Shown here: positions 5,893 through 59,582 of the stretch, piece by piece
Numbering within the stretch: the stretch's first letter is position 1
Layout of the letters: each line of letters starts with the position of its first letter
Assembly: GCA_964218365.1 (NCBI GenBank)
Contig: CAXPMI010000037.1
Location: forward strand, 3,164-67,163
DNA length: 64,000 bases
Direction: 5' to 3'
Origin: Candidatus Poseidoniaceae archaeon
GTDB taxonomy: Archaea; Thermoplasmatota; Poseidoniia; Poseidoniales; Poseidoniaceae
Program-made: the position numbers and the translations under genes
The notes under the pieces: generated by a model
The model's database searches: none
What the model was told of the DNA's origin: nothing
What the model saw: the letters and a program-made list of their open reading frames with translations, nothing else

Positions 5893-7092
5893 ATGGTTAT
5901 GGATATCGCTAATCCTAGTGACGAGCACCAAATGTTGCGTGAAATGGTTCGTGACTTTGTCAATGAGCACGTTGAACCACAAGCTTTGGAATATGATCGT
6001 GATGAGAAATTCAATGTCGAACTGTTGCGTTCCCTAGGGGAAATGGGTTTGCTTGGAATAACCGCCAGCGAAGAGTTCGGAGGTGCTGGACTAGACGCAG
6101 TTGCAACAGTGATCGTTCATGAAGAATTATCGGCTAGTGACCCCGGGTTTGCACTTGCTTACTTAGCACACTCAATGCTTTTCGTAAACAATCTTGAATT
6201 CAACGGAAATGATGAACAAAGGGCTAGAATACTACCAAAAGTTTGCTCTGGAGAATGGATTGGAGCTATGGCGATGAGTGAACCAGATGCAGGAACAGAC
6301 GTACTAGGCCTCACAACATCTGCTGTTCAGAGAGACGATGGCGCATGGGTCCTCAACGGAAGAAAAATGTGGATTACAAATGGCTGTATAGATGATGATG
6401 GAACTCCTGCTGACGTCGTTTGGGTTTACGCTAGAACAGGGACTGATGCTAAAGGTCGCGCTCAACTCTCAACCTTCCTTGTTGAGAATGGGATGTCAGG
6501 ATACAGCGTCGGTCAGAAAATTATCGACAAGACTGGAATGCGTGCCTCTAACACGGCAGAACTTGTATTCGAAGATTGTATTGTTCCTGCTGAAAATCTA
6601 GTCGGAGAGGTCGGAGATTCAATGCTCCACATGATGGGTAACTTGGAAATCGAGCGTCTAACTTTGGCTGCTATGTCTCTAGGTATTGCTCGTCGCTCTC
6701 TGGATGAGATGAACAAATATGCAACTGACAGGGAAGCATTCGGAAGACAAATCAGAGACTTTGGTCAAATTCAAAGGTATGTTGGAGAATCATGGGCAAA
6801 GTACAGAGCAATGCGTGCTTACATCTATGACACGGCTAACAACCTAGGACTTGGGAATGCAGGTCAGAGACTTGACAGCGACGGTGTCAAACTATTTGCA
6901 ACAACAGCAGCGAAGGAAATTGCAGATGCAGCAATCCAGGTTATGGGTGGCTATGGATACGTCGCTGAATACGTTGTAGAAAGGCTATGGAGAGACTCCA
7001 AACTACTTGAAATCGGTGGTGGAACAATCGAATCTCATCAGAAGAATATCACAAGAGATCTCTCAAAAACTCCTGAAGTTATCAACGACTGA
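5893..7092 (+). CDS. Acyl-CoA dehydrogenase (short/branched-chain type)
   Basis: ACAD hallmarks: 'MSEPDAGTDV', 'WITNG', 'GGYGYVAEYVVERLWRDSKLLEIGGGT'. The start is set at ATG 5893 ('MVMDIANPSDEHQMLREMVRDF'); the ORF track's GTG at 5848 adds 15 unlikely residues. Confidence 0.85.
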   Translation: MVMDIANPSDEHQMLREMVRDFVNEHVEPQALEYDRDEKFNVELLRSLGEMGLLGITASEEFGGAGLDAVATVIVHEELSASDPGFALAYLAHSMLFVNNLEFNGNDEQRARILPKVCSGEWIGAMAMSEPDAGTDVLGLTTSAVQRDDGAWVLNGRKMWITNGCIDDDGTPADVVWVYARTGTDAKGRAQLSTFLVENGMSGYSVGQKIIDKTGMRASNTAELVFEDCIVPAENLVGEVGDSMLHMMGNLEIERLTLAAMSLGIARRSLDEMNKYATDREAFGRQIRDFGQIQRYVGESWAKYRAMRAYIYDTANNLGLGNAGQRLDSDGVKLFATTAAKEIADAAIQVMGGYGYVAEYVVERLWRDSKLLEIGGGTIESHQKNITRDLSKTPEVIND

Positions 7093-7167
7093 GTACCGAA
7101 ATCCACTCTAAATTATATGTGGAACTCTAACTGAAGTTCTTATGAGAAGAGGTTACAACCGCCGTAT

Positions 7168-9135
7168 ATGCGCAGAAGGTCACCACTTGCAATCATGCTT
7201 GTGTCTGTGGCGCTTCTGATGTCTTTTTCAGTAGTCGTTGCTTCTAACACGAACGAAATCCAAAGTCACAGCACATCTGAATTAATTGACTCTCAGATTT
7301 GGAACCTCAACGAATCTGAAGGCGAAACATATACTGTTACTGTAGATGGAACCAATTTGCGGTTCTCCCCAGATACCGTCACTCTAATGGAGGGAGATAC
7401 GATACAATTCTTTTGGGAAAATCAATTACTCCCCCACAACGCAGTGGAACGAGGAGGTCTCTTTGATTCAGGAGAGCCTGAAAGAAATGTAAATTACACA
7501 TACACGTTCAACGTCGGAGAAAATGGAACTTACGAGTATGTCTGCGAACCGCATGAAAGCGTGGGAATGATTGGAACCATTATTGTAGAACCTAAACCAG
7601 TTCCTGAACCAGAACCAGAAGAACCCGATGATGAAGATGATGATACGTCTGTGATGTCGGTTGGAAGTGGAGAAATATCCGGATTCCTTTTTGCTCCCTG
7701 GTTTATCGGAGTCATAGTTTTAGTTGGCTTCATTTCAACAAGAAGCGATCAATTCCAACTTGGTTTGATTCTTGAAGAAGAAATAGACGCAGTGTTGGTT
7801 AATGATGATGGTGGCGAGGAAGGAAAAACTCTCGTTGAGAGCTACAATGCCAGAGTATTCACTCTTTGTGCACTTTACGTAGCACAGGGAATTCCATGGG
7901 GATTCATTACTGTCACATTTGTTACCTATCTAGCAGCAGAAGGGTTTGCAGCAAAGGACCTCGCAATGTTGCTTACACTAGGAACTCTTCCTTGGTCAGT
8001 AAAGTTCCTGTGGGGCCCTGTAATCGACAGGTATCAGTACCGTCCAATGGGTAGGAGAAGACCTTGGATTCTCATCGCCCAAACGGGCATGATAACCCTA
8101 CTAACACTGATGGTTTTCTTCATAGATGTAGAGAAGGATGTAACAACTATTGCATACATGTTCCTTGTTTACAACATATTTACGTCTCTACAGGATGTTA
8201 GTACCGATGCCCTGGCTGTAGACATTTTGAAACCAAATGAATTAGAGAAAGTAAACGGTTACATGTTTACCGCTAAAACACTAGGAGGAATGATTGGAGG
8301 GGCCGGTCTTGGGACGATAATCAGCTACACTGGAATACGAGGTGCACTGATTGTTCAGATTCCTATATTGCTAGCTATAATGATGGTTCCACTTTACATG
8401 AGAGAGAGACCTGGCGAGAAATTATTCCCGTGGAGCGAAGATTCACACCTTGCGTTCGAAGAAAAGGCATCTAGCAACCAAAATTTCAAAGAAATTATCG
8501 GGAAAGTGAAAACTGCATTCTCACTAAAGTCAACTCAGTTAGGAATTCTCCTTAGTCTATTCGTCTCACTTTCTCACTTTTTGATTCCTCTTTTGCCATT
8601 ACTTTTCTTGAGAGAATTAGATTGGTCACAAGAGAGATTCAATGCGACAAAAGGTGGTCTAGTGCTGATAATAACCATGTTTGGTTATCTTGCTGGAGGA
8701 TATCTCGGTAAGAAATTCGGAGGTAAATCAGTTATCATTTACTCAACTACAATCGGTGCTTTAGTTACTGCATTTTGGGGATTAACCGAATCATGGTGGG
8801 GAAGCGAATTCTATCTTGTATTCATTTGGTCATTAGCAGAATTCATGATGGCAATCGTAAGTATTAGCATTTATTCGCTAATGATGCGAATAACATGGAG
8901 CGAGGTTGGTGGTACACAATTTACTGGATACATGGCGATGATGAACCTCTCAGCAATTATTGGATACCAAATAGCGGCACCACTTTCAGAGCGATTTGAT
9001 TATCCAACTCTTTTCTTGATTGCAGCAGTCTTTGAGACACTGATTATCGCAACTGCGCTCTTCATTGATCCAGACGAAACACGCCGTGAACTTGAGGATT
9101 TGACAACAGAGCAACAGGTTCCAGAATCTATCTAA
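7168..9135 (+). CDS. Fusion protein: signal peptide + type-1 (blue) copper cupredoxin domain + AmpG/PAT-family MFS transporter
   Basis: The signal-like N-terminus is followed by a cupredoxin module at nt 7330-7593. Its ligand pattern is 'PHNAV' ... 'YVCEPHESVGM' (H, C-x2-H-x4-M). An acidic/Pro linker follows ('PKPVPEPEPEEPDDEDDD'). The remainder is a roughly 12-TM MFS with the AmpG-type motif 'LPWSVKFLWGPVIDRYQYRPMGRRRPW'. Confidence 0.75.
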   Translation: MRRRSPLAIMLVSVALLMSFSVVVASNTNEIQSHSTSELIDSQIWNLNESEGETYTVTVDGTNLRFSPDTVTLMEGDTIQFFWENQLLPHNAVERGGLFDSGEPERNVNYTYTFNVGENGTYEYVCEPHESVGMIGTIIVEPKPVPEPEPEEPDDEDDDTSVMSVGSGEISGFLFAPWFIGVIVLVGFISTRSDQFQLGLILEEEIDAVLVNDDGGEEGKTLVESYNARVFTLCALYVAQGIPWGFITVTFVTYLAAEGFAAKDLAMLLTLGTLPWSVKFLWGPVIDRYQYRPMGRRRPWILIAQTGMITLLTLMVFFIDVEKDVTTIAYMFLVYNIFTSLQDVSTDALAVDILKPNELEKVNGYMFTAKTLGGMIGGAGLGTIISYTGIRGALIVQIPILLAIMMVPLYMRERPGEKLFPWSEDSHLAFEEKASSNQNFKEIIGKVKTAFSLKSTQLGILLSLFVSLSHFLIPLLPLLFLRELDWSQERFNATKGGLVLIITMFGYLAGGYLGKKFGGKSVIIYSTTIGALVTAFWGLTESWWGSEFYLVFIWSLAEFMMAIVSISIYSLMMRITWSEVGGTQFTGYMAMMNLSAIIGYQIAAPLSERFDYPTLFLIAAVFETLIIATALFIDPDETRRELEDLTTEQQVPESI

Positions 9136-9164
9136 CTGCGCCTGCGGCTTAGGTGATTAGAGGA

Positions 9165-9237
9165 TAGTCCTGGTCGGAGTCGAACCGACGTCCCCGGGAC
9201 CAAAACCCGAGATGATGGACCACTACACTACAGGACT
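9165..9237 (-). tRNA. tRNA-Gln (anticodon TTG)
   Basis: The reverse complement folds as a cloverleaf. Acceptor AGTCCTG/CAGGACT. Anticodon arm TCGGG-TTTTGGT-CCCGG, giving anticodon TTG. T arm GTCGG-TTCGACT-CCGAC. The discriminator is A and no CCA is encoded. Confidence 0.85.
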
Positions 9238-9259
9238 GTGGCGAGTCGCCGTGGAGGAT

Positions 9260-9769
9260 TCACTTCAAGTTAGTTTCGCCTATTACTTCGCGAGCAGACG
9301 CAATAAATTCACTGAGGTCTAAGCCCTGTTTATCCTCGTAAATTCGGGCCATTAAGGCCATGTCGAGTTTGTCTAAATACTTCACAAACTTTGCTTCTTC
9401 AGTTTCCTGTGCCTCATATTCTTCAAACAGTCCCAACCATTGCGGCGCTAACCTAGTCATCGCCCTATGTTCATCCTCACTCTTCGTACTGGTATCGTCA
9501 TGTGGAGTAAGATCTCCAACCTCAACCTCAGGTAAATCATGAACCAAACACATCTCGATAACTCTCATTCGGTCGAGATGTTCAGGGCACAAATGCATAG
9601 CAAGTACCGACATTCCCCAGGAATGTGCAGCCACGCTTTCCGGTGAATCTACACCTGCTCTTACCCATCCAGTTCTGAGTATGTCTTTCAATCCAAGCCA
9701 TTCTCGCATGGTCAATGTAAGGTGTGACCTAATTTGAATCATCTTATTGCTATCAAGGGTTGAAGCCAA
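9260..9769 (-). CDS. HD-domain phosphohydrolase (YfbR-like 5'-nucleotidase family)
   Basis: The 'ESVAAHSWGMSVLAM' and 'VHDLPEVEVGDLTPHD' motifs give the H...HD...D metal-binding pattern. The start could instead be an internal Met. Confidence 0.7.
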   Translation of the reverse strand: MASTLDSNKMIQIRSHLTLTMREWLGLKDILRTGWVRAGVDSPESVAAHSWGMSVLAMHLCPEHLDRMRVIEMCLVHDLPEVEVGDLTPHDDTSTKSEDEHRAMTRLAPQWLGLFEEYEAQETEEAKFVKYLDKLDMALMARIYEDKQGLDLSEFIASAREVIGETNLK

Positions 9770-9801
9770 TTATCATGAACGTGGAACATTTCGGGTAAAG
9801 C

Positions 9802-10650
9802 ATGAGCATCACAAAAATGGCCGTTTTGGGCGCAGGCCAAATGGGAAATGGAATTACACAAGTTGCAGCATGCGCTGGAATTGAAGTAGTAATGATAGAT
9901 ATCCAGCAAGAATATGTCGACAAAGGTATTGCAACTATTGAGAAGTCTCTTGCAAAACTGGTCTCTAAGGAAAGAATGTCCCAAGAAGATGCAGATGCTG
10001 CTCGGTCAAGAATTAGCACGGCAGTAGACAGGTCAGCTTGTGCAGATGTTGACCTAGTAGTAGAAGCAGTACCAGAAATCCTTGACTTGAAGTTGTCAAT
10101 ATTCTCTGAGTTAGATGGTATCTGCAAGGAAGATTGTATCCTTGCTACCAACACATCTTCAATCTCAATCAGTGAAATTGCAGCCGCAACCTCAAGACCT
10201 GACAAGGTAATTGGAATGCATTTCATGAATCCAGTACCAATCATGAAACTTGTCGAAGTCATTAATGGAAAGGAAACTACTGAATCTGTTACTTCAACAG
10301 TTCTCGCAGCAGCAGAGCGCATGGGAAAGATCCCTCTTATGTGCAACGACTCTCCAGGGTTCGTATCGAATAGAATTCTTTGCCCAATGATAAACGAAGC
10401 AATCCTAACTCTGCAGGAGGGTGTTGCAGAACCAGAAGCAATCGATGGAATCATGAAGTTGGGAATGAATCATCCTATTGGTCCACTCGCACTTTCAGAC
10501 TTGATTGGGAACGATACCGTTCTACACATCATGAATGTCCTCCACGAGGGAATGGGAGACGACAAATACGCTCCTGCACCTCTTCTTATAGAAATGGTTG
10601 AGCAAGGAAAACTCGGCAGGAAATCAGGCCAAGGGTTCTATGATTATTGA
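9802..10650 (+). CDS. hbd: 3-hydroxybutyryl/3-hydroxyacyl-CoA dehydrogenase
   Basis: Rossmann N-terminus 'MAVLGAGQMGNGITQVAA', plus 'NTSSISISEIA', 'GMHFMNPVPIMKLVEVI', 'SPGFVSNRIL' and 'GMNHPIGPLALSDLIG'. Confidence 0.85.
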   Translation: MSITKMAVLGAGQMGNGITQVAACAGIEVVMIDIQQEYVDKGIATIEKSLAKLVSKERMSQEDADAARSRISTAVDRSACADVDLVVEAVPEILDLKLSIFSELDGICKEDCILATNTSSISISEIAAATSRPDKVIGMHFMNPVPIMKLVEVINGKETTESVTSTVLAAAERMGKIPLMCNDSPGFVSNRILCPMINEAILTLQEGVAEPEAIDGIMKLGMNHPIGPLALSDLIGNDTVLHIMNVLHEGMGDDKYAPAPLLIEMVEQGKLGRKSGQGFYDY

Positions 10651-10708
10651 TGAGTCTTTGACTCGTATCGGCTAAAACATTTAGTAGTCGAATTAAACGA
10701 TTTAATAC

Positions 10709-13700
10709 ATGCGTAAAGCCTTGGTATTGGCAGCGTTAATGGTGTCGATGACACTCATACCAATAGTCAGTGCTTTGGATGGAGACGGGGACGGAATCAA
10801 CGATTCTAACGACGTATGTCCATTTGCAGCAGGTACTGCAAATTCTACCGCAGGTTTTGGCTGTCCAGATAGCGATGGAGACGGTCTAGCAGACTTTGAG
10901 CAACCAACAAGGTATGCTTGGAGTGAGTCTTCATCTGTACGAGTAACCACTGGTACAACCTCCGGTGAGGTCAACGTGATTGAGTGGGCAACCAACGGCA
11001 GCGTGTTCTTTGCTGGAAGCAACAACAATCGAGTTGTTATGTATGATAGTTCTGGAATTTTCATCAAAAATCTATACACAATGCAAGGGGATATAATGGA
11101 TATAGAAATCTCACCAAATGGGGATAATCTTGTTGTTGGTAGCAAAAATGGAGGTTGTGTAGTAATTAATGCAACATCAGGGACATTTGTTGCAGATCTT
11201 TGGAATGGCACAACTTCTAGCGACATATACGAAGTTGGTTGGTCTAGAGATGATGAGAGAATATTCTGTGGTGGCCGTGATTCTACACTAAAGTCGTACT
11301 ATACTAGCAACTATAGTTTTGAGAAGAATTTCCCTGGATTGCCTGGCTGGATAAGTGGTATTGATACAACGCCTGATGGAAGAATTGTTTTCGTAACAGG
11401 AAATCAGGATGTCTACGGTTTTTGGACTGAAAATAACACAATTTATCTGAATATGACAAACCATTCAAACTACGTTAGAGTGTTGACAGTTAGTCCTGAC
11501 GGAAGGTACGTAGCCACAGGTTCACAAGATAGTACTGTCATCATAACTGATGTTAAATCAAAATCAATAATTAAACAATTAACCTTAGGGGGTCAGGTAC
11601 ACGATATCCACTTTTCAAGTGATGGTGGAAGCATGCTTGTGACTCGAGGATATGGGTCAGAATTCTACGTATTTAGGACAGATACATGGGCCAATATAGG
11701 TACTATTGGAGGATTTGGAACATCACAAAATAACCGTGGTGTATTTTCTGCAGAATTTAATGAAGATGGGGATAGAATTGCAATAGGTTGGCGCAGGGGT
11801 TGGGTTTCCGTCCATACGATTTCGGAAAATTTCATCAGAATTCAAGGATTACATTATACCTCCTTAATGGAGTCACCATGGAAATCAACGTACACTGCTA
11901 CGAGTGATTATGTTGGTGTTTGGGAATATGATAGATTGCAGTCTACACTCGATGCGTGTGAATCTAAACATTACATTGGTTCGGCTACGAATGGTGTAGA
12001 CCCCTCTCTAGCTTCCAAATCAACCAATTATTCTATGACAGGAATTTGGGAATGTGATACGACCGACGAAGAGATTCTTGAGATACCATACGGAAGAGCA
12101 GCAGGTGCTCTAATGGTAAAAGCCGATGGAGACGCACAAACTTGTATTGAGACAATTGGAGGATTATCACTAGCACAAATTCGTTGGATAGCGTCAGCTT
12201 CAGGCAGGAGCGGTTTGACAACAGCGGGTGAGATGCCTGCCCTAGATTGGAGCTCAGTCGTACCTAGCGATGACAATGATGGAATTAGAGAATGGAGTGA
12301 CTTACATGATTCTTGTATTGGTGATGAGATAATCTTAGCTCACCGCTCTGAAGAAAGAGTTGACACAACAATTCTCGAAGAACTTGTCTTGTGTGAGAAT
12401 TGCGCTCAGAAGGATTCCTTCTATTCATCGACAACATCGAGATTTAGGTTTGATGTTGGTGAAGATAGAGAAAATGTAACCGACGTAATCTCTGCGCCTG
12501 CGGGTGATGGTTCGATAGGTTTCACAGAGTTAGCATTTACTTTAGACAATTCAAATGGTTTGTACATAGTTCCAATAGTTGACAACTTAACTCATGGAGC
12601 AGAAGATGCAATTCTTGCCGGAGGGCATGCAGTTAACGCTTCAATTAATGCCTCTCGTGACGGTGAATGGCCACTTCAGACAGACATGCGTGCATTTTCT
12701 TCTGTCAGCAATATCACAAAAAACATGCCTTTCCTCAGATATTTGTTATCAGAGATTGGCCAATTAAAATGGGAGCAAATGGGCTTTGTAGGTCTTGGTG
12801 TGTGGGATTTGTACCTAACTTGGGGTAAATTAGGGCTCGATATGTATCACATACTTCCTGATGAAGATATGGACGGAGTTTGGGATGGTGATGATATCTG
12901 CCCTAATACAGAAGTTGGTCTAAGTGTAAACGATGCAGGATGTCCTGAAAGTGAAATAGACGACGACAATGACGGATACACTAACGATGTTGATGATTGT
13001 GATGGTGTGCCAGGAACATCATACATCGATAAGTTAGGTTGCCCAGATCAAGATGGTGATGGTTGGGAGGATTCTAATGACTCACATCCTAATGACTCAA
13101 CAGAATGGAATGATACAGATTCCGATGGCTTTGGAGACAATTCCGATGATTGTCCAGATGAATTTGGAAACTCAACACAAGGTAGCGTTGGTTGCCTTGA
13201 TAGTGATGGAGATACTTGGGCAGACTTGAACGATGCATTTGTGAATGATAGTTCAGAATGGTTCGATTTTGATGGTGATGGCTTTGGAAATAATATTGAC
13301 GAATTCCCATATGAGCCAACTCAATGGCTTGATTCGGATTCTGATGGGTTCGGAGACAACAATTCCGGATTAGAAGGGGATGACTGTGTCGATGTTGCAG
13401 GAACTTCAAACAAAGATGGCCTATTTGGCTGCCTAGACTCAGATGGTGACGGATGGGCGGATACAATTGACGATTTACCCTCAAATCCGTTACAACACAT
13501 CGACGCAGACGGAGATGGTGTAGGAGATTCCGTTTCTTCATCAGGCTTTGATATGTGCGTTGAAACAACTCCAGAAGAAAGGTCGATGGTTGATTCAAAC
13601 GGGTGTGGCCCATCTGAAAGAGATGGAGATTATGACTCATTTACAGATGATATCGACCAATGTCCATCAACTCCACTTTTGAAAACGACCCTAGTTAATA

Positions 13701-14581
13701 CAACTATATTCTTGGACGAAGACAAAACAGTCCTAAATCCAATAGTTGGTTGTGCTCCATCTGAAATAGACCTTGATGGAGATGGAGTTACTGCTGATTT
13801 GGATTGGGACGACAACAATGCGAATCAATCAATTGACAGCGATGGAGATGGATTTGGTGACAATAGTAACTCTCCGGATGGAGATGATTGTCCATTACAG
13901 AAAGGGACCTCTACAAAGGATAAGCTTGGCTGCTTAGATCTTGATAATGATGGCTGGTCATATGAAACAGACTTCAATGACGGTGACCCAACGCAGTGGA
14001 AGGATACCGATGGAGATGGATTTGGAGATAATTATGATAACTTGGATTGGAGCGAAGGGCGAACACTTGGAGAATTTGTCGAGGGAGCAACACAACCCGA
14101 TAGATGTCCAAATGAATATTCTGCTTTCCTTTATTCTAATACACAAGGCTGTTTGACATCTCCAGAGTCTTCAGATGAAAATGAACAAAATGCGGCTCAA
14201 GGCAAAGATGATGATGAAGAATCGAATCTTGTACTAATACTCTCACTGGCTGCAGTTGGAATCATTTTCGTGTTGTTTGGTGCTATCGCAGTTCTGCTTA
14301 GAAAGAAACCATCCTCAAAACCGAATGACAATATTGGACCTGTCCATCCGGCATTGGATAAGAACAAATCAGGATCCGAATTAACCGAAACCGATGATCA
14401 AGTTCAAGTTGTAGAGGAATCAATGGATTCGAAAGACTCAATTGAATTTGTATCAACTTGGGAAGAATTACCTACTGGTGAATGGCTTCCAAATGATGAG
14501 CATGGAGTGAATTGGTATCAGGATGAGGAAGGCAGATATTGGCATTCGACTGACGATGGTTTTAGAGTTTGGAAAGAATGA
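10709..14581 (+). CDS. Giant secreted surface protein: TSP3 repeats, WD40/YVTN beta-propeller, PBP-like region, long TSP3 array, TM anchor, cytoplasmic aromatic tail
   Basis: Signal peptide 'MRKALVLAALMVSMTLIPIVSA'. WD-like repeats are present, for example 'VSPDGRYVATGSQDSTVIITDV'. A central region with 'LSLAQIRWIASASG' is tentatively periplasmic-binding-protein-like. There are more than 15 'DSDGDGxxDxxDxCP'-type calcium-binding repeats. The TM helix is 'LVLILSLAAVGIIFVLFGAIAVLL', followed by RKK and a 93-aa tail. Confidence 0.8.
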   Translation: MRKALVLAALMVSMTLIPIVSALDGDGDGINDSNDVCPFAAGTANSTAGFGCPDSDGDGLADFEQPTRYAWSESSSVRVTTGTTSGEVNVIEWATNGSVFFAGSNNNRVVMYDSSGIFIKNLYTMQGDIMDIEISPNGDNLVVGSKNGGCVVINATSGTFVADLWNGTTSSDIYEVGWSRDDERIFCGGRDSTLKSYYTSNYSFEKNFPGLPGWISGIDTTPDGRIVFVTGNQDVYGFWTENNTIYLNMTNHSNYVRVLTVSPDGRYVATGSQDSTVIITDVKSKSIIKQLTLGGQVHDIHFSSDGGSMLVTRGYGSEFYVFRTDTWANIGTIGGFGTSQNNRGVFSAEFNEDGDRIAIGWRRGWVSVHTISENFIRIQGLHYTSLMESPWKSTYTATSDYVGVWEYDRLQSTLDACESKHYIGSATNGVDPSLASKSTNYSMTGIWECDTTDEEILEIPYGRAAGALMVKADGDAQTCIETIGGLSLAQIRWIASASGRSGLTTAGEMPALDWSSVVPSDDNDGIREWSDLHDSCIGDEIILAHRSEERVDTTILEELVLCENCAQKDSFYSSTTSRFRFDVGEDRENVTDVISAPAGDGSIGFTELAFTLDNSNGLYIVPIVDNLTHGAEDAILAGGHAVNASINASRDGEWPLQTDMRAFSSVSNITKNMPFLRYLLSEIGQLKWEQMGFVGLGVWDLYLTWGKLGLDMYHILPDEDMDGVWDGDDICPNTEVGLSVNDAGCPESEIDDDNDGYTNDVDDCDGVPGTSYIDKLGCPDQDGDGWEDSNDSHPNDSTEWNDTDSDGFGDNSDDCPDEFGNSTQGSVGCLDSDGDTWADLNDAFVNDSSEWFDFDGDGFGNNIDEFPYEPTQWLDSDSDGFGDNNSGLEGDDCVDVAGTSNKDGLFGCLDSDGDGWADTIDDLPSNPLQHIDADGDGVGDSVSSSGFDMCVETTPEERSMVDSNGCGPSERDGDYDSFTDDIDQCPSTPLLKTTLVNTTIFLDEDKTVLNPIVGCAPSEIDLDGDGVTADLDWDDNNANQSIDSDGDGFGDNSNSPDGDDCPLQKGTSTKDKLGCLDLDNDGWSYETDFNDGDPTQWKDTDGDGFGDNYDNLDWSEGRTLGEFVEGATQPDRCPNEYSAFLYSNTQGCLTSPESSDENEQNAAQGKDDDEESNLVLILSLAAVGIIFVLFGAIAVLLRKKPSSKPNDNIGPVHPALDKNKSGSELTETDDQVQVVEESMDSKDSIEFVSTWEELPTGEWLPNDEHGVNWYQDEEGRYWHSTDDGFRVWKE
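12860..14045 (+). repeat. Tandem degenerate thrombospondin-type-3-like (D-x-D-x-D-G) calcium-binding repeat array (coding)
   Basis: Recurrent gat-(a/t)cn-gat-ggn-gat-ggn units encode DSDGDG[FW][GA]D motifs spaced by C-containing linkers. The repeats are degenerate at the nucleotide level. The region also produces a spurious His/Gln-rich antisense ORF (13089-13640). Confidence 0.6.
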
Positions 14582-21901: not shown

Positions 21902-22471
21902 ATGGCAGATGCTGATGAGATTGTGTTGGCAGGCTCTAGGCCTCAGCATTCGAATCCGATCGAATCTCTTCACAACCGAACTGCATTTGTTCTAATTATT
22001 GATTCAGCAATTGTCACATTCGCCTTCTATTCGCTATTTGGTAGTCTAGCCTTGATTCCAGGTGCTTTCTTTCTAGCTGTTTGGTCGGGTTACAAGAATA
22101 GATCTGCCTGGGCGTACTGGTTTGCTCCAATTATTATTGGAGGATTAACTGTAATTTTCGCAATTTTGCTATTCATAAATATGTTGACAATTTTTTCTGG
22201 AAACATATCTGGATTACTGTTTGCACTAATATTGGGATATGCTATATTTTCATCTGTAAGGTTCATCAGAATTCATTTCCATCCTGTGTATCAAATGGGA
22301 TACAGCGGCCACTCTGTCTACGATGAAGGGATTAAACTTCCAGCAAATGAAATGCTAGCAGCATGTCCAACCTGCTTGGCAGTGCTTGCAGTAAATCCAG
22401 TTATGCTATCGCCAAAGGACAAATGTCCTCATTGTGATTCTCCACTTGTACTCGGTTACGAAGAGGAGTGA
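21902..22471 (+). CDS. Hypothetical 4-TM membrane protein with C-terminal zinc ribbon
   Basis: Four hydrophobic helices are followed by 'CPTC...CPHC'. I recognise no family. It is convergent with the actin-like gene, with stops 5 bp apart. Confidence 0.5.
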   Translation: MADADEIVLAGSRPQHSNPIESLHNRTAFVLIIDSAIVTFAFYSLFGSLALIPGAFFLAVWSGYKNRSAWAYWFAPIIIGGLTVIFAILLFINMLTIFSGNISGLLFALILGYAIFSSVRFIRIHFHPVYQMGYSGHSVYDEGIKLPANEMLAACPTCLAVLAVNPVMLSPKDKCPHCDSPLVLGYEEE

Positions 22472-22476
22472 AACAA

Positions 22477-23514
22477 TCAGCGAGATGCTAGAGTTAGGTT
22501 CTTCCACATGTCTTCAGGAACTTCCATTGCTAGTCTTAGACCACCCATTGCACCTAGGCGAACAGGGTCATCTACGACGTGAACGTTAACGTCGCCCATG
22601 TCTGACAATCTTCTCTCAATAAGAGCTCCAAGTCCTCTGATTCCAGAGCCTCCTCCCGCTAAGACCATGTTCCTGCGGAATTCATCGTGGAATTCAGGGT
22701 TAGAACCTGCGATAAGTGCCTTAACGTTCTCGACGATTGGGTCGACAATGGACTCACATGCTGCTTGAATACAATCTGTGATGTCTAGAGACATTGCCTT
22801 ACCTTCGATTGAGAAGTCGACCATAATTGGCTCATCTGGTGTTGATGTTGAAACGAAGGAGTATTGTTCCTTCCATCTGCGAGCCATGTCTTTGGTGATC
22901 TGTGCACCGTTGTACTTCTTCTGTACTTCAAGGATGATTTGGTTGTCTACATAGTCACCAGCGTATCCTGTGTGCATTTGGTCGCCAGGTCCGGGGATTG
23001 TTCCGTAGACGCGGCAAAGGTCAGTTGTACCTGCTCCAATATCGATAACCAGAGTGTGCTCAATCATATCTAGAGCGTATGCGACTGCGAACGGCTCAGA
23101 GATAATCATTGCAGCATTGACAGAGCCAGCAGCTGCATCAAAAATTGAAGTCTTGTCGACGTGGCTTGCTTCTGCAGGAGCACCGATAACGGCGACTACT
23201 CTGTCGTAATCTTCTGGGTCAGACAAGCCGATTAGGTGGGTAATGAAGTGAGCGATAAACTCTCTATCTTCTGGTGTGTCCTTGATGACTCCCAGTTCAA
23301 GAGGTCTGAACAGGTTAAGTGCCAACCTGTTCTTCAATGCCTCATTTCCGAATAGAACATCTCTCTTCAAGAAATTTCTTGCGATTGGGTCTTTTGGTGT
23401 GCCGATAACAGTCAACTCTTCTTCCTCGTGACTGTCACTTGATACCATTACAGAACGAAAGGTTCCAAGGTCAATTCCAATGTAAAGTACTTCTTCAGCC
23501 ATAATACTCGCCAT
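22477..23514 (-). CDS. Actin-fold ATPase of the MamK/MreB type
   Basis: Phosphate-1 'YIGIDLGTFRS', then 'VIGTPKD', 'AVIGAPAEAS' and 'IISEPFAVAYALD'. Phosphate-2 'LVIDIGAGTTDLCRVYGTIPGPGDQ'. Adenosine motif 'LAGGGSGIRGL', then 'DDPVRLGAMGGLRLA'. At 345 aa the length and motif spacing resemble MamK as I remember it. The start may be Met5 (23502). Confidence 0.8.
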   Translation of the reverse strand: MASIMAEEVLYIGIDLGTFRSVMVSSDSHEEEELTVIGTPKDPIARNFLKRDVLFGNEALKNRLALNLFRPLELGVIKDTPEDREFIAHFITHLIGLSDPEDYDRVVAVIGAPAEASHVDKTSIFDAAAGSVNAAMIISEPFAVAYALDMIEHTLVIDIGAGTTDLCRVYGTIPGPGDQMHTGYAGDYVDNQIILEVQKKYNGAQITKDMARRWKEQYSFVSTSTPDEPIMVDFSIEGKAMSLDITDCIQAACESIVDPIVENVKALIAGSNPEFHDEFRRNMVLAGGGSGIRGLGALIERRLSDMGDVNVHVVDDPVRLGAMGGLRLAMEVPEDMWKNLTLASR

Positions 23515-23577
23515 TCCGCCCCATCGGCTCTCACCTTATGAAGAATGCCTTAGAACCATTACTCGACTTGGCACCAA

Positions 23578-23593
23578 ATAAAATCTATATATC
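23578..23593 (-). promoter_or_regulatory. Candidate TATA-box region upstream of the actin-like gene
   Basis: The minus strand reads 'GATATATAGATTTTATTTG' within the 85-bp spacer, about 65-80 nt upstream of the ATG. This suggests the actin-like gene can be transcribed from its own promoter. Confidence 0.3.
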
Positions 23594-23599
23594 GTAGGG

Positions 23600-24601
23600 C
23601 TAACACCAATTTTCACATGCCTTACAGTACCATGCTGCATAGTCTGCGTAAAGGTCAGCCATTGCTCCACAATTTGTACATTCTTTGAGTGCATGCTCTC
23701 CGAAAATCTGTTGGACAATTTGCACATGCAAGTAATCGTCAATACCTAATTGTTGTCTCATTGCCCACAACATTTGATCTTCGGATGGAGAGATGATTCC
23801 ATCGGCTAGGCAGATTTCTACAACCACTTTGTAATCCTCTACCATTCGAACATCACGAGGGTCCATTGAAACTCCGGATTTCTCAGCAACTATGTCGGTA
23901 CCGCCTGGGTCGTCAACAAAAATGACTAGTGAATCTGCGTTTAGATTTTCGTCACGTAACTCTAGCAGGATTATGCTACCTTCTTGGTTAGCGTAAACCA
24001 AGTTTGAGAATCTGTTGATTACGTTTGTAATAGAGCGAGCAGTGTCTTCAGCAGACCTTCCTCTGCGCCAACCGGTTTCACTAGCTTCGTCAAAAGCGTA
24101 GAACTCAGTTCCCATGCCTGGATATTCAAGCCGAATTTCTTCTCCGCCGTCAAAGCCGTTTGCCACGATAGTAATGCTTCCCACTGTCGTATCCACCAAA
24201 TTGTCATCATCATCAAATGAAATCATTAGTGGCTTTCTCTCCTCTGCAGCTGCATTGAAGTGACCACTCATACCACTCATCCACTTGTCCTCTAACCTCT
24301 TCAAAGAAGCCTCTTGCTCACCTGATAGCCCTCTGTCAATACCTAAGACGTTACTAAGGTCGCCAGATTGCATTTCACTTTTGAATTCCTCAATCAGTTC
24401 AGCATCTCTACGGTAGGTTTGTGGCGGCCCTCTTTTCTGTGCAACGTGATGTGGGTCCTTCCACTCATATCCGCATCTAACACAACTTAGGTATCCGGCG
24501 AGTGTCGAGGGCTGCTTTTCCCCACCACATCGGGGGCAATCTCCTTCCTCTGATATGGTTAGATTTTCATAGGCTTCGCGTCGGCCTTTACGGATACCCA
24601 T
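23600..24601 (-). CDS. Hypothetical protein with N- and C-terminal zinc ribbons and a TerB-like helical module
   Basis: 'CPRCGG...CVRCGYEW' at the N-terminus and 'CTNCG...CKACENWC' at the C-terminus. A penultimate helical segment, 'VVVEICLADGIISPSEDQMLWAMRQQLGID', is reminiscent of TerB-like domains. It lies directly upstream of the actin-like gene on the same strand. Confidence 0.55.
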   Translation of the reverse strand: MGIRKGRREAYENLTISEEGDCPRCGGEKQPSTLAGYLSCVRCGYEWKDPHHVAQKRGPPQTYRRDAELIEEFKSEMQSGDLSNVLGIDRGLSGEQEASLKRLEDKWMSGMSGHFNAAAEERKPLMISFDDDDNLVDTTVGSITIVANGFDGGEEIRLEYPGMGTEFYAFDEASETGWRRGRSAEDTARSITNVINRFSNLVYANQEGSIILLELRDENLNADSLVIFVDDPGGTDIVAEKSGVSMDPRDVRMVEDYKVVVEICLADGIISPSEDQMLWAMRQQLGIDDYLHVQIVQQIFGEHALKECTNCGAMADLYADYAAWYCKACENWC

Positions 24602-25843: not shown

Positions 25844-26551
25844 ATGAAGGAGGTGTCATCAGCCCGAGACATGCTAAGACAATGTCGAACACATGGACAC
25901 TTCAGCGGAACCAATTGCCCAGAATGCAATGCAGAAGGTAAGTTCATTATGTCAGATAGAGAGGCAAACAGCCTTGGTAGAATCCTTGCTCTAGTGTTAC
26001 GTCACGCCCCAGAAAAGTTTGGAGTCGAGATGGACCTTAACGGATGGGTCAATTCCAGAGAGTTATCAGAAGCAATTCAAAACCAGAGAAGACATTTCCA
26101 CTGGCTAAGAGGATGGCATTTCGAAGCAATCGCTAATGCTGATACTAAGGGGAGATACCAAGTCGAAGGAGAAATGATTAGAGCAACATACGGGCACTCA
26201 ATCGAATTGGAGTTGGATTTACCGACCGATGATATTCCTGAAGCACTATACTGGCCATGTGACCCTGAAACTGTTTCTACACACATGGAGTACGGAATAA
26301 CAGCTGGAGACAGAAAGCATGTTCACCTATCAAAGACAATTTCCAACGCAATGGAAGCAGGTCACGTCAGGATTTCAAGGCCTGCAATTTTAGAAGTAGA
26401 TACAACCAGAGCAATAGCTGATGGATTTACGATTTGGAGAGCAGGCACAACTGTGTTCCTTTGTGAAGAAATGCCTTCAGAATATCTGTACCATGTTGAA
26501 GAGGATGACCCTTCAATTAAAGATATGATTGCAATTTGGGAAGAAGAGTAA
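25844..26551 (+). CDS. kptA: RNA 2'-phosphotransferase (KptA/Tpt1) with N-terminal Cys/His cluster
   Basis: 'LALVLRHAPEKFGVEMDLNGWV', 'RYQVEGEMIRATYGHS' and 'HVHLS' match the Tpt1 family. The N-terminus carries 'CRTHGHFSGTNCPEC'. Confidence 0.8.
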   Translation: MKEVSSARDMLRQCRTHGHFSGTNCPECNAEGKFIMSDREANSLGRILALVLRHAPEKFGVEMDLNGWVNSRELSEAIQNQRRHFHWLRGWHFEAIANADTKGRYQVEGEMIRATYGHSIELELDLPTDDIPEALYWPCDPETVSTHMEYGITAGDRKHVHLSKTISNAMEAGHVRISRPAILEVDTTRAIADGFTIWRAGTTVFLCEEMPSEYLYHVEEDDPSIKDMIAIWEEE

Positions 26552-26890
26552 TCACTCTGTGTAATTACCACAGGCCGAACAGAAATTTAGGTCTGCATCA
26601 ATACTTGCTCCACAATGTGGACACATTCCGCCTGCGATTGCAATAACCTGCTTTGCTATTTCCGTATTATCTGCATTAGGAGTAGAAAGTGCCTGGACTA
26701 TTTTCAATGGATTTTGGCCTAATTTCGAAAGTTCCTTGAATCTTGTAGAGAATTCGATGGCTAGCAGAAGTGAGGACTCGATTTGCCACTGTCGTTTCTG
26801 CCTCTCAACTTTGTCGACTATCTCTTCACAAGCATCTAACTCTGCTTGCATATGTCGAATGAATTCGTCAACAGTAGGTGACTCTGTCAT
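26552..26890 (-). CDS. Hypothetical coiled-coil protein with C-terminal double-CxxC zinc ribbon
   Basis: 'CPHCGASIDADLNFCSACG' at the C-terminus. The start is set at the internal Met ('MTESPTVDEF'); the ORF track's 22 extra residues look non-coding. Confidence 0.45.
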   Translation of the reverse strand: MTESPTVDEFIRHMQAELDACEEIVDKVERQKRQWQIESSLLLAIEFSTRFKELSKLGQNPLKIVQALSTPNADNTEIAKQVIAIAGGMCPHCGASIDADLNFCSACGNYTE

Positions 26891-26958
26891 GTTTGACCGG
26901 TAACACCTCTCCCATGTAAATCCAATGCACACATTAGTAGGAAACCCTTGCCACAAGC

Positions 26959-27732
26959 ATGGCGGGAACGGTTGTCATCAAATGGGGGGGTGGACTAATC
27001 ACTCACAAAGACCAATTGTGTACAGTCAATCTTGAAATTATCAGGTCATTGGCAGAAGTATGCTCCCAAACCTCAAAGAAATTAGTTATCGTTCACGGAG
27101 CAGGTTCATTTGGACACCTTAAGGCTAAGAAATTCAGGTTAGCAGATGGGAGGATATCCGGTTTGAACCAAGATTCTGCAGTAAGAGATGTCCGCAATGA
27201 TATGTTGGAACTAAACTCCGTTGTGGTTAGAGAATTGAGGTCCTTTGGTCTAGACGTAAAGAGTTACTCGCCGCACCAATGGGCCAAGGGTACGGGTGCT
27301 GATTTCACAGGTGATTTACCTCTACATCATGGAGTAACTGTGGTGTACGGTGACGTGGTAGATGATGATGCTAAAGAATTTGGAATATTATCTGGCGATG
27401 ACTTGATGTTGAGATATTCTATTGAAATCCCGGATGTTGAGAGGGCTGTATTTGCAATAGGAGGAGTTGATGGCATACTTCGAGTGCCACCTGCTAAAGC
27501 AGGTCCAGATGATCTGATCGAGGTATGGACTCCGGACATGGAGTTTGAAGGTGAGCATGCAGCGGATATTGATGTGACAGGTGGAATTGGGCTAAAGGCG
27601 ACACGGGGCGCTATGATTGCTGCAAATGGTATCGATGTTGTCCTGATAAATGGAGAAATTCCGGGGAGAGTTTTAGACGCAATTGAAGGTAAATCAGTAA
27701 TCGGAACTCGGATTGAATCGGGGAACTGTTGA
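26959..27732 (+). CDS. ipk: Isopentenyl phosphate kinase (amino-acid-kinase fold)
   Basis: 'VIKWGGGLITHKD' and 'LVIVHGAGSFGH' match the IPK/fosfomycin-resistance-kinase pattern. The gene lies directly upstream of the IDI-GGPPS fusion. Confidence 0.75.
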   Translation: MAGTVVIKWGGGLITHKDQLCTVNLEIIRSLAEVCSQTSKKLVIVHGAGSFGHLKAKKFRLADGRISGLNQDSAVRDVRNDMLELNSVVVRELRSFGLDVKSYSPHQWAKGTGADFTGDLPLHHGVTVVYGDVVDDDAKEFGILSGDDLMLRYSIEIPDVERAVFAIGGVDGILRVPPAKAGPDDLIEVWTPDMEFEGEHAADIDVTGGIGLKATRGAMIAANGIDVVLINGEIPGRVLDAIEGKSVIGTRIESGNC

Positions 27733-27752: not shown

Positions 27753-29495
27753 ATGTTAGGTGAGTCGATGTCAGGATATGGGATAGAGGATGTTCCAACA
27801 ATCCAAATGGAATCGGACGCATCGTCAGCTCTGGATGGTTCAGATACTGTTCAGGAGTCTTTGATGGCTGAAGCGGTCATTCAGGTTACCGAGCATGACG
27901 AAGTAATAGGGCCCATCTCAAAGTTGGATTCACACTTTGAGGTAGGAAAGTATCACCGGGCATTCAGTGTGCTTCTTTTCGATTCATCAGGTAGACTCCT
28001 ACTCCAAAAAAGAGCATCCCACAAAATTACATTTCCAAGTGTTTGGGCAAATTCATGTTGCTCACACCCTCTGTATTCAGACGAAGAGATGGAACTTAAG
28101 GATGCACTTGGTGTAAAAAGGGCCGCTATCAGAAAACTCGACCAGGAGTTGGGAATTCACCCGTCACAAGTTCCGATAGAAAAATTCGACTTTGTAACTA
28201 GGATGAGGTATCAATCACGCCAAGATGAAGAATGGATTGAGCGTGAAATTGACCATTGTTTGGTAATTCATGCTGATGTTGATTTGGCCCCTAACCCGAA
28301 CGAAGTTGAAGATGTGAAATGGGTATCAAAGGAAGACTTAGAGGAAATTTTAGTCTCTGATTCTGGGGAAATCATTGCACCATGGTTCAGATGTATTGCT
28401 GCCAGAGTAATGACAGATGATTGGTGGAGACCAGGGTGTACAAAACCTGACGATTTAATCCATGACATGGGAGATGTATCACACATGCTGCCTAATGCTG
28501 TGGGTGCAGATTTGACAACAAGCATTGCCGAGGTAAAGGACTTGGTCGAAAGTAGAATTGAAAGAGCCCTTACCCACTCAAATTTAGAGAGGCTTTCTGG
28601 TGCAATGATGCATTTACTTGAGGGTGGAGGCAAAAGGCTGCGCGCCACATTGCCGTGGCTTGTTGCTAAAGCTGTGGGTGATACTCACTCTGGTCTATTA
28701 GATGTCGGAGCAGCGATAGAAATCATTCACAATTTCACTTTAGTTCATGATGACATCATGGATGATGATGATGTCCGAAGAGGAAGGCCTGCTGTTCACA
28801 AGGCGTATGATCTACCAACTGCGATTAATGCAGGAGATGCTATGCTTGCAATTGCTTTTGAAGCAATGGCAGTAGCAGAGGGCATCGAGCCAGAACTACT
28901 ACCATTCTTGGTGAAGAGAATAGGTAGAATGGTTAGGAAATGTAGCGAAGGTCAGCAATTAGACATCGAATTTGAGGATAGAGATGTAGTAACTGAAGAA
29001 GAATATATTGAGATGATACATGGTAAGACCGCTGCGATGTTCCTGACATGTGCAGAGGTTGGTTCCCATCTTGCTGGTGCGGATGAGGAAATTATCCAAT
29101 GCATGCACGATTGGGGACTGGCTCTCGGATTGTGCTTCCAACTAATGGATGACTTAATCGATGTTCTTTCTGACTCAGATACCCTAGGTAAGCCAAGTGG
29201 AAGCGATGTAGCCCAAGGTAAGAGAACGCTGATGGTAATTCATGCACTCAAACAGCCTCCATCTGATTCCAAGGATGATTTACTAGCTGTTCTAGGTAAA
29301 GGTGACAACGTAACAGCAGAGCAAGTTGCCAGAGGTCATCAAGCGCTTCATGACCTTGGCTCAATTGATTATGCAAAAGCAAAGGCGGAGGCATACCATA
29401 GAAAGGCACATGATTGCCTTGACAGGCTTTCAGAAAGCCCTGCATTAAAAGCGCTTAGAGAGTTGACCGATTATCAACTCAACCGGATATACTGA
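27753..29495 (+). CDS. Fusion: type-1 isopentenyl-diphosphate isomerase (Nudix) + geranylgeranyl/polyprenyl diphosphate synthase
   Basis: The N-terminal half carries IDI1 motifs: 'YHRAFSVLLFDSSGRLLLQKRASHKITFPSVWANSCCSHPL' and 'EREIDHCLV'. The C-terminal half is a trans-prenyltransferase with FARM 'LVHDDIMDDDDVRRG' (about nt 28741-28785) and SARM 'FQLMDDLID' (about nt 29137-29163). Confidence 0.85.
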   Translation: MLGESMSGYGIEDVPTIQMESDASSALDGSDTVQESLMAEAVIQVTEHDEVIGPISKLDSHFEVGKYHRAFSVLLFDSSGRLLLQKRASHKITFPSVWANSCCSHPLYSDEEMELKDALGVKRAAIRKLDQELGIHPSQVPIEKFDFVTRMRYQSRQDEEWIEREIDHCLVIHADVDLAPNPNEVEDVKWVSKEDLEEILVSDSGEIIAPWFRCIAARVMTDDWWRPGCTKPDDLIHDMGDVSHMLPNAVGADLTTSIAEVKDLVESRIERALTHSNLERLSGAMMHLLEGGGKRLRATLPWLVAKAVGDTHSGLLDVGAAIEIIHNFTLVHDDIMDDDDVRRGRPAVHKAYDLPTAINAGDAMLAIAFEAMAVAEGIEPELLPFLVKRIGRMVRKCSEGQQLDIEFEDRDVVTEEEYIEMIHGKTAAMFLTCAEVGSHLAGADEEIIQCMHDWGLALGLCFQLMDDLIDVLSDSDTLGKPSGSDVAQGKRTLMVIHALKQPPSDSKDDLLAVLGKGDNVTAEQVARGHQALHDLGSIDYAKAKAEAYHRKAHDCLDRLSESPALKALRELTDYQLNRIY

Positions 29496-59361: not shown

Positions 59362-59582
59362 GATAATCTTCTCCACTATCCGTGATTGGGGAGCGTGAGT
59401 AATGAGGTCATGAATGTTTGCCTTAAGCCTAAAATCATCCAAGATGGCAGTATCTATTGTTTAAACGTGCACTGCATCACATTTATTCTCAACATTTCGT
59501 TTTTTTCTTTAGGGTTGCAAATCTAAATTTATTCACTTTTACAAGAGGTGGTCTCATTTACTTCTTCTATCCCCCACAGGTC

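Follow-up and report, generated by a model that had tools for sequence, protein, structure and literature searches.

A MamK-like actin and its conserved double-zinc-ribbon neighbor in Poseidoniales: a candidate two-gene filament module

MamK, the magnetosome actin of Magnetospirillum, works with MamJ, an acidic adaptor. McaA and McaB have been described as further possible actin-binding proteins (PMC13170167), and the MamK branch of the actins has been characterized as "primarily bacterial but also some archaeal" (Yutin et al. 2009, PMC2651865). Outside the magnetotactic bacteria, a MamK-related family whose cellular function is unknown, BeeR, was found in non-magnetotactic Verrucomicrobiota (PMC11929497), and the salactin paper names MamK as the closest subfamily of that archaeal actin (PMC10746226). 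Both the existence of MamK-like actins beyond magnetotactic bacteria and the logic of an actin with a dedicated adaptor are therefore already known. Here we describe a MamK-like actin, actin A, and the gene directly upstream of it, which encodes a 333-amino-acid (aa) protein with two zinc ribbons, ZnR333. Both lie in a 64-kb stretch of DNA (contig CAXPMI010000037.1; "the window" below) that had been predicted, from its letters alone, to hold an archaeal actin filament system. The named homologs of its genes agree with the archaeal part of that claim and place the organism in Poseidoniales (Marine Group II, MGII), which are uncultured and among the most abundant archaea of the ocean. We read the locus as a two-gene chromosomal module, present throughout Poseidoniales, in which a MamK-like filament would be joined by ZnR333 as its dedicated partner, and we give this reading a probability of roughly 0.55. 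In full-text searches of the literature, neither the MGII cytoskeleton nor any homolog of actin, MreB or MamK from Poseidoniales or MGII turned up as the subject of a paper.

The original prediction held that the actin resembles MamK more than crenactin or the Ta0583/ParM-type archaeal actins, and quoted seven peptide blocks of the protein in support. All seven are present, and the protein proves to be of MamK type rather than of the crenactin or Ta0583/ParM kind; MamK is the top family by profile, by PDB score and by fold rank, as well as the closest solved structure. The NCBIfam MamK model (NF040964) matches the whole protein with 358.1 bits (E = 4e-107), followed by BeeR (210 bits), MreB (92), salactin (59), EutJ (31) and FtsA (29). 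The best PDB matches are the Magnetospirillum MamK structures 5LJW, 5JYG and 5LJV at 252–256 bits (5LJW reaching 256 over query residues 6–340), with BeeR next at 149 bits and MreBs at 53–57 bits, and alignment with the MamK of AMB-1 gives 38.7% identity over 336 columns. All five of the actin ATPase motifs described for MamK (phosphate 1, connect 1 or xEPx, phosphate 2 or DxGxG, adenosine or GG, and connect 2; PMC10653835) are intact, in the form of GIDLGT (residues 13–18), SEPF (139–142), VIDIGAGTTD (156–165), LAGGGSGI (285–292) and GAMGG (321–325). When a predicted model of the actin was submitted to Foldseek, MamK occupied ranks 1–3, ahead of BeeR, MreB and eukaryotic actins, and EutJ, PilM and Hsp70 were absent from the top 50 matches. 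The best profile matches are to polymerizing actins rather than to EutJ-, PilM- or Hsp70-like proteins, and the closest solved structures (MamK, BeeR, MreB and actin) are all filament formers. The window protein almost certainly belongs to the MamK-family actins.

The position of the protein within that family can be gauged from the scores of its relatives against the same model. MamK-like of AMB-1 scores 472 bits, and the Nitrospira, Gemmatimonadota and KSB1 proteins score 425, 412 and 402 bits; the archaeal proteins score 371 (ANME-2), 368 (P0095, an actin named Thalassarchaeaceae), 358 (the window) and 330 bits (a second Poseidoniales actin, paralogue B, discussed below). The archaeal members fall just under the curated MamK cut-off of 400 bits, which may explain why databases label them "rod shape-determining protein" or "hypothetical". 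The actin also misses the cut-offs of the MreB models (92 vs 293 bits for PRK13927 and 81 vs 366 for TIGR00904) and of the BeeR model (210 vs 530). In Pfam, MreB_Mbl is the best match at 90 bits, with Actin at 30 and a weak Volactin match; Salactin (PF25229), at 51 bits, exceeds its gathering score of 27.1 but stays below MreB_Mbl, and its NCBIfam counterpart NF053533 reaches just 59 of the 400 bits required. A neighbor-joining tree was built from 86 representatives with 100 bootstraps and rooted on BeeR, no more distant outgroup being included. In it, the actins of Poseidoniales (100% bootstrap) belong to a wide MamK-like clade from which BeeR is separated (98%), and fall outside the sub-branch that holds Magnetospirillum MamK and MamK-like. 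Magnetosome genes were found neither among the scanned open reading frames (ORFs) of the window, for which an earlier statement that none lie nearby therefore holds, nor among the examined genes of related loci. Orthology with magnetosome MamK was considered and rejected, given the score under the MamK cut-off, the different sub-branch and the absence of a magnetosome cluster from the genes examined. We place actin A at the periphery of the MamK-like family in its broad sense.

Homologs of actin A form more than 4000 clusters, and the best 120 share 78–97% identity with the window copy. Those of the 120 that carry names come from Candidatus Poseidoniales, Poseidoniaceae, Thalassarchaeaceae or "Euryarchaeota archaeon", and they are often labeled MreB. 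When a single genome was scanned for each species, 250 stretches were confirmed, from which 80 loci were kept, all of them Poseidoniales save two evidently mis-binned contigs. These two come from metagenome-assembled genomes named "Verrucomicrobiales bacterium" (L054, NZEQ01000006.1) and "Rhodobiaceae bacterium" (L069, CALDQY010000264.1); their actins show 91–93% identity, L054 also carries ZnR333 and two further genes of the neighborhood, Tpt1 and ZnR134, and both are most likely archaeal contigs.

Across 84 loci, identity to the window actin has a median of 93% and a minimum of 80%. Its neighbors are less conserved, with medians of 70% for ZnR333, 76% for CoaBC, 81% for Tpt1 and 66% for a fusion of isopentenyl-diphosphate-isomerase and geranylgeranyl-diphosphate-synthase type (IDI-GGPPS). 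Locus by locus, the actin is more conserved than ZnR333 in 81 of 81 cases, than CoaBC in 40 of 40 and than Tpt1 in 67 of 67. Between the window and L081, whose actin is named Thalassarchaeaceae, the actins are 82% identical and the EF-2 proteins 80%; actin A evolves as slowly as EF-2. Constraint over the whole surface of the protein is what would be expected of a polymer with several binding partners. Because the protein belongs to this family, retains its catalytic motifs and is so extremely conserved, it is likely that it forms filaments.

Conservation of the link between the actin and zinc-ribbon genes had been named as one of the checks on the prediction, and the pairing was found to be kept throughout. 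A tblastn comparison places ZnR333 just ahead of the actin gene, with no gene between them and in the same orientation, in 79 of the 79 informative species-representative loci, the eightieth locus beginning at the actin gene without upstream DNA. The pair is also present in all of four further loci that were retrieved by way of more divergent actins (about 80–82% identity; one named Thalassarchaeaceae), where the gene order is thiolase, ZnR, actin, a convergent gene of ~190 aa, and CoaBC. The recurrence of this order in all four indicates that the arrangement was probably present in the ancestor of Poseidoniales. Its flanks have since been less stable. Among 55 loci with at least 2 kb of DNA on each side, both ancestral flanks are kept in 11, the downstream flank alone in 15 and neither in 29. 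In the Poseidonia species, peroxiredoxin, transaldolase and transketolase genes lie downstream of the pair. The pair itself is intact in 55 of these 55 loci, with a spacer whose median is ~100 nt. ZnR333 and the actin are the sole invariant unit of the neighborhood, and we are confident that their pairing is a conserved feature of the order.

ZnR333 is acidic overall (isoelectric point, pI, 4.5), its first 60 residues are basic (pI 8.4), and neither it nor the actin has a hydrophobic segment, the maximum 19-residue Kyte-Doolittle means being 1.05 and 1.27, respectively. Its anatomy (Table 1) was drawn from alignments of 24 and 25 homologs and from an AlphaFold model with a mean predicted local distance difference test (pLDDT) score of 75.7, rising to ~90 for residues 135–330. 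Zinc ribbons at both of its ends had been part of the original prediction, and each end does carry a conserved CxxC...CxxC pair: in the 24-sequence alignment none of the eight ribbon cysteines varies, in the 25-sequence alignment Cys40 is kept in at least 90%, and beta-hairpins are predicted at both putative metal-binding sites. The N-terminal ribbon gives weak matches to the Zn_ribbon_IS1595, TFIIB and L37ae ribbons and is followed by a poorly predicted helical linker. This linker leads to the peptide at residues 116–134, in which eight of the ten columns at residues 122–131 are invariant and for which the model gives low confidence (pLDDT 35–37 for model residues 111–130). The peptide is a candidate binding peptide, and would be the best candidate for a contact with the actin.

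Among BFVD models, the central domain of ZnR333 resembles domains of 105–135 residues in three kinds of phage tail protein, namely tubular protein B, the sheath and the major tail protein (root-mean-square deviation 3–4 Å, E down to 8e-6). This likeness was set aside as a functional clue, being a domain-level resemblance of fold alone; folds of this type are structural and bind proteins, and are not those of enzymes. For the helical module, the earlier description as "TerB-like" stands only in part. A match to Pfam TerB (PF05099) recurs in 19 of 25 homologs, yet every one is below the Pfam threshold; that of ZnR333 itself reaches 17.3 bits against a cut-off of 24.4 and covers profile positions 80–110 of 118, or ~30 residues. 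As a whole, ZnR333 has no match above threshold in Pfam, NCBIfam, PHROGs or PADLOC, and Foldseek against the PDB gave no match with E < 0.001. Its homologs form 306 clusters, and the 120 listed are all unnamed or from Poseidoniales/Euryarchaeota; among these matches, ZnR333 is detected in Poseidoniales alone. The JGI label of its homologs is sometimes "ribosomal protein L37AE".

Table 1. Coordinates of the features of the actin A–ZnR333 locus in the window.
Feature	Position	Strand	Remarks
Actin A, MamK-family actin-like ATPase	22477..23514	-	345 aa as called ORF
ZnR333, two-zinc-ribbon protein	23600..24601	-	333 aa; upstream of actin, 85-nt spacer
189-aa protein, ~4 transmembrane segments and C-terminal zinc ribbon	21902..22471	+	Converges on actin, 5-nt gap
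Conserved intergenic element GGCATTCTTCATAAGGTGA	23531..23549	-	~35 nt upstream of Met5 codon; from intergenic alignment
Conserved TTCTATAGA-type element	23581..23592	-	Directly 3' of ZnR333 stop codon; 11/14 aligned loci
ZnR333 residues 2-14, conserved basic N-terminal helix	24560-24598	-	From alignment
ZnR333 N-terminal zinc ribbon, Cys22/25/40/43	24473..24538	-	CxxC...CxxC
ZnR333 residues 116-134, NAAAEERKPLMISFDDDDN	24200..24256	-	Most conserved stretch, yet predicted disordered
ZnR333 residues 135-250, central alpha/beta domain	23852..24199	-	pLDDT ~90
ZnR333 residues 255-302, helical module with invariant DGIISPSEDQ..W	23696..23839	-	Three model helices; weakly TerB-like
ZnR333 C-terminal zinc ribbon, Cys308/311/326/329	23615..23680	-	Invariant Tyr and Trp; pLDDT 80-85

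The three ORFs of the locus lie at the coordinates and on the strands originally given for them, when checked against the ORFs of the window. For the actin, one refinement is suggested by the alignments. Most of its orthologs are 341 aa long and align from window residue 5, and the true start is probably Met5 (ATG at 23502, 341 aa) rather than the ATG at 23514, which would make the called ORF four codons too long. A conserved spacer element, GGnATTnTTCATAAGGTGA, stands ~35 nt upstream of Met5; GGCATTCTTCATAAGGTGA is kept across the Poseidoniaceae loci, and L081 and L084, two of the loci with more divergent actins, retain just a related form, GGGCATTnTTGAAATA. Since the orthologs start at the equivalent of Met5 and the conserved element lies upstream of it, the element may be a promoter and 23502 the true start. 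More precisely, GGCATTCTTCATAAGGTGA is a candidate B recognition element/TATA (BRE/TATA) promoter of the actin gene, accompanied by a GGTGA motif resembling a ribosome-binding site, and the actin may be transcribed alone as well as by read-through from ZnR333. A scan for sigma-70 promoters and terminators returned counts at chance level, but such a scan does not apply to archaea.

Another means of judging the pair is through the neighbors of related actins. An exhaustive search among 50%-identity representatives found 1203 relatives of the actin. The best of these after Poseidoniales fragments, and the nearest from bacteria, are P0244–P0259, proteins of 520–1230 aa with 44–49% identity, two of which are named candidate division KSB1. 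Thirteen of 14 of them share an architecture of a ~120-aa N-terminal coiled coil, a disordered, low-complexity linker of 250–750 aa and a C-terminal MamK-like domain; P0254 (523 aa) differs in its N-terminus, which is shorter and of low complexity. One such fusion lies in a bacterial gene context (L088, 8001–10340, + strand). We know of no characterized actin with this coiled coil–linker–MamK-like architecture. The ANME-2/Methanosarcinales, Nitrospira and Gemmatimonadota relatives are 42–45% identical to actin A. In ANME-2, the actin gene (L089, 5001–6077, + strand; 42% identity) is separated by 26 nt from a downstream gene for a giant protein (6103–11077, + strand; more than 1650 aa within the locus) that combines acidic and proline-rich repeats with a long coiled coil, is disordered, and has no Pfam match. 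The gene after the Gemmatimonadota actin encodes a coiled-coil protein of 178 aa (L090, 6161–6697). No obvious partner gene was seen at the Nitrospira-type locus.

Poseidoniales also possess a second actin of this family. P0249, or paralogue B, is 335 aa long, 45% identical to the window actin and sister to the actin A clade in the neighbor-joining tree (94% bootstrap), and scores 330 bits against NCBIfam MamK. That it might come from a sister order, such as Marine Group III, was considered and rejected, since the neighbors of P0249 cluster with proteins of Poseidoniaceae, Poseidoniales and Thalassarchaeaceae and place it in Poseidoniales as a second paralogue. The two actins are known from separate loci rather than from one genome. 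At the loci examined (L085–L087), paralogue B (8001–9008, + strand) is followed on the same strand by CC426 (9101–10381), a 426-aa protein that is coiled coil throughout. CC426 (P0441) has 675 members in its 90% cluster and carries the JGI label "chromosome segregation ATPase". Rhodopsin and GGGP synthase genes also occur in the context of paralogue B.

None of these partners is related to ZnR333. A search with the ZnR333 profile has no match at the loci of the ANME-2, Gemmatimonadota, Nitrospira-type and KSB1 actins or of paralogue B; CC426 is unrelated to ZnR333, and by BLASTP and hmmsearch the N-terminal coiled coil of the KSB1 proteins is related to neither. The MamK-like branch of the actins tends to carry dedicated, lineage-specific partners that are usually coiled-coil proteins, and the upstream zinc-ribbon partner of Poseidoniales is a distinct variant.

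Taken together, these observations suggest the following mechanism. Actin A would most likely bind and hydrolyze ATP and assemble into cytoplasmic, MamK-like filaments, and ZnR333 would most likely be a soluble, acidic, multi-domain partner dedicated to them. As an adaptor, it could use its ribbons and central domain to tie the filament to a cargo or site, with the peptide at residues 116–134 making the contact with the actin; alternatively, it may regulate filament assembly. The system would then position or partition an intracellular component such as the nucleoid or the division or other machinery. Positioning or partitioning is favored over a role in shape because the cells are coccoid, the scanned ORFs hold no wall machinery and neither protein has a hydrophobic segment. 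On balance, a functional partnership between the actin and ZnR333 seems probable. It is also conceivable, if speculative and of low probability, that ZnR333 links dynamic filaments of the MamK type to a cargo present in one copy, be it the nucleoid or something else, as a chromosome-level analog of ParMRC built in archaea from unrelated parts, with paralogue B and its coiled-coil partner serving a different cargo. If so, coccoid planktonic archaea would run two specialized actin systems.

Several points weigh against the reading of the locus as a filament module with a dedicated partner. Polymerization, physical interaction of the actin with ZnR333 and the cellular role are all inferred. The actin misses the curated MamK cut-off (358 against 400 bits), and the AlphaFold model behind its fold ranking, which served for that ranking alone, is of moderate quality (pLDDT 66.5, from a shallow alignment). 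Asp277 (window 22684–22686) aligns to MamK A278, the sole experimentally validated MamK polymerization position that was mapped onto the actin, and the title of PDB entry 5LJW describes A278D as a non-polymerizing mutant. Longitudinal-contact residues, whose absence had been named as grounds for refuting the prediction, were compared at this one position, and the outcome is ambiguous. Tpt1 and ZnR134 are kept upstream in 65–68 of the 80 loci, which shows that synteny extends beyond the pair and that adjacency alone is no proof. The promoter-like element of the actin means that co-transcription with ZnR333 is not required. Support from gene fusions of the Rosetta-stone kind was sought and discarded, as the partners of the related actins are unrelated to ZnR333.

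The protein could conceivably be a monomeric or dimeric actin-fold ATPase in the manner of EutJ, PilM or Hsp70, a view to which both Asp277 and the score under the MamK cut-off lend themselves. This is very improbable, given that the models for EutJ, FtsA and Hsp70 each reach 31 bits or less and none of these proteins appears in the top 50 fold matches. The residue itself is not unusual: all 18 of the Poseidoniales sequences have D, E or N in the A278 column, D or E is the commonest state across 86 family representatives (32, against 12 with Ala), and Asp occurs in a Nitrospira representative and three KSB1 representatives that lie above the MamK cut-off where tested. Conservation of the whole surface at the level of EF-2 likewise fits a polymer, and Asp277 reads as a warning against transferring details of the MamK interface rather than as evidence against polymerization. 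A filament that instead serves as a scaffold for the envelope or cell shape, as with MreB or volactin, and with ZnR333 as an accessory, is also quite unlikely. MreB_Mbl is the best Pfam match (90 bits), a weak Volactin match is present, and many sources annotate the actin as MreB. Moreover, several archaeal actins affect shape, volactin among them. For salactin, an effect on shape was tested for (PMC10746226). Against such a role, the NCBIfam MreB model gives 92 bits where 293 are needed and MamK gives 358; MreC, MreD, RodZ and other wall-synthesis genes are absent from the scanned ORFs of the window, that is, the locus and its flanks; and neither protein has a hydrophobic segment in the Kyte-Doolittle scan, outside whose reach amphipathic helices lie. 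To our knowledge, archaea are without peptidoglycan. MGII cells themselves are cocci of ~0.7 µm in diameter (PMC6864105), so that the label "rod shape-determining MreB" is doubtful, and small cocci without a peptidoglycan wall, together with a locus free of magnetosome genes, make a role in rod shape or in magnetosomes less likely.

The remaining alternative denies the partnership. Here, the two genes would be neighbors through inherited synteny, the actin acting alone or with unlinked partners and ZnR333 being, for example, a binder of nucleic acids or ribosomes. The actin's own promoter-like element, the strong difference in rate between the two proteins (median identity 93% against 70%), the synteny of other nearby genes, and the weak likeness of the ZnR333 ribbons to L37ae, TFIIB and IS1595, together with the JGI "ribosomal protein L37AE" label, are all compatible with this. 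What sets the pair apart is that it survives every rearrangement, including replacement of both flanks in 29 of the 55 long-flank loci, and that it persists in the four loci with divergent actins, always on one strand and across a short spacer (median ~100 nt). In addition, the restricted distribution of ZnR333, among the matches listed, coincides with that of the actin clade, and related actins likewise carry dedicated neighbors. The absence of a functional link is accordingly judged unlikely, and the two-gene module remains the reading that we prefer.

A third gene had been suggested as a membrane anchor completing this module. The 189-aa protein does converge on the actin, with ~4 hydrophobic segments and a C-terminal zinc ribbon (CxxC...CxxC at Cys155/158/175/178), but its role as anchor or third component was rejected on linkage, which is not kept. 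Of the 55 long-flank loci, just 26 have it next to the actin; many loci lack it, and in the Poseidonia species it does not occur within 8 kb. Where it has been displaced, by 2–5 kb, it still adjoins CoaBC (L061, L064, L065, L071, L075 and L078), the gene with which it travels. The window copy shares just ~29% identity with those at the loci of the more divergent actins. It is probably a neighbor and not part of the module.

The wider surroundings are those of a housekeeping chromosome, with genes for a thiolase, CoaBC, a Trm56-like methyltransferase, Tpt1, isopentenyl-phosphate kinase, EF-2, Cbf5, TiaS, an aminoacyl-tRNA synthetase and an RFC-like AAA ATPase, and the GC content is even, at ~44% throughout. 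No plasmid or mobile-element genes were found among the scanned ORFs of the window, and no centromere-like repeat array was found near the locus, where just two-copy repeats at chance level occur. Proteins with zinc ribbons are unusually frequent here, namely ZnR333, the 189-aa protein and a 134-aa protein with a C-terminal DUF7575-type ribbon (26552–26956, - strand). The last of these and the RNA 2'-phosphotransferase Tpt1 (25844–26551, + strand) lie 1–3 kb upstream of ZnR333. An isopentenyl-phosphate-kinase-like gene (26959–27732) adjoins a gene for a 580-aa fusion protein (27753–29495, + strand), whose counterpart in L081 has a NUDIX followed by a polyprenyl synthase domain and fits an IDI-GGPP synthase fusion. 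Further away, a 1290-aa protein (10709–14581, + strand) begins with WD40 beta-propeller repeats (PF00400 WD40, 61 bits) and matches several eukaryote-type propeller models, all under their own cut-offs, the other ~900 residues being unassigned. An 1137-aa ORF (50571–53984, - strand) has C-type lectin, LamG-like, PPC and EF-hand-like matches that suggest a secreted or surface protein, and it adjoins a very large ORF of 1788 aa (54076–59442, - strand).

What is new in these findings is an order-wide archaeal clade of MamK-like actins with conservation at the level of EF-2, an uncharacterized family of double-zinc-ribbon partners and, in all, two paralogous actin–partner modules in Poseidoniales. 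The MamK-like family is thereby extended well past magnetosomes and into archaea, and a widespread annotation, that of a "rod shape-determining protein MreB" in a coccus, is corrected. Because MamK-like actins appear to recruit varied lineage-specific partners, whether coiled-coil, fused or zinc-ribbon, they offer a natural system in which to study how actin filaments acquire cargo, and the compact two-gene modules are amenable to heterologous testing.

Among the known systems, Magnetospirillum MamK (5LJV, 5LJW and 5JYG) is closest, being of the same subfamily by profile, sequence and fold rank, with 39% identity and identical ATPase motifs. Each actin would also be accompanied by an acidic partner specific to its lineage, if that role of ZnR333 is correct. 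Magnetosome MamK is marked by ATP-dependent assembly into filaments that are double-stranded and non-staggered. Unlike it, actin A has an archaeal host, no magnetosome genes, a place on another sub-branch and a score under the family cut-off; it has Asp at the A278 position, and its partner is of no known family and bears two zinc ribbons. BeeR of Verrucomicrobiota (8R2N), the second-best family and structure match, is likewise MamK-related and found in a non-magnetotactic host, but its N-terminal domain is disordered and it assembles into tubes of three strands, whereas the Poseidoniales actin is without that domain and groups with MamK (98%). Salactin and volactin are archaeal actins as well, but form separate clades restricted to Methanotecta, and the available part of PMC10746226 shows no zinc-ribbon partner for salactin. 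The logic of a filament-forming actin encoded alongside its adaptor would be shared with ParM/ParR/parC and with Alp7A/AlfA. ParMRC, in contrast, is plasmid-borne, with a small, basic, DNA-binding adaptor encoded downstream and centromere repeats, whereas actin A stands in a chromosomal housekeeping context without centromere-like repeats and has a large acidic candidate partner (333 aa, pI 4.5) upstream; the one match to a PHROG "partition protein" is weak, at 30 bits. Finally, paralogue B with CC426 and the ANME-2, Gemmatimonadota and KSB1 proteins represent the same actin family at 42–49% identity, each with a lineage-specific neighbor or extension. Their partners are coiled-coil proteins encoded downstream or fused to the N-terminus of the actin, in contrast to ZnR333, which is globular, carries two zinc ribbons, is encoded upstream and is homologous to none of them.

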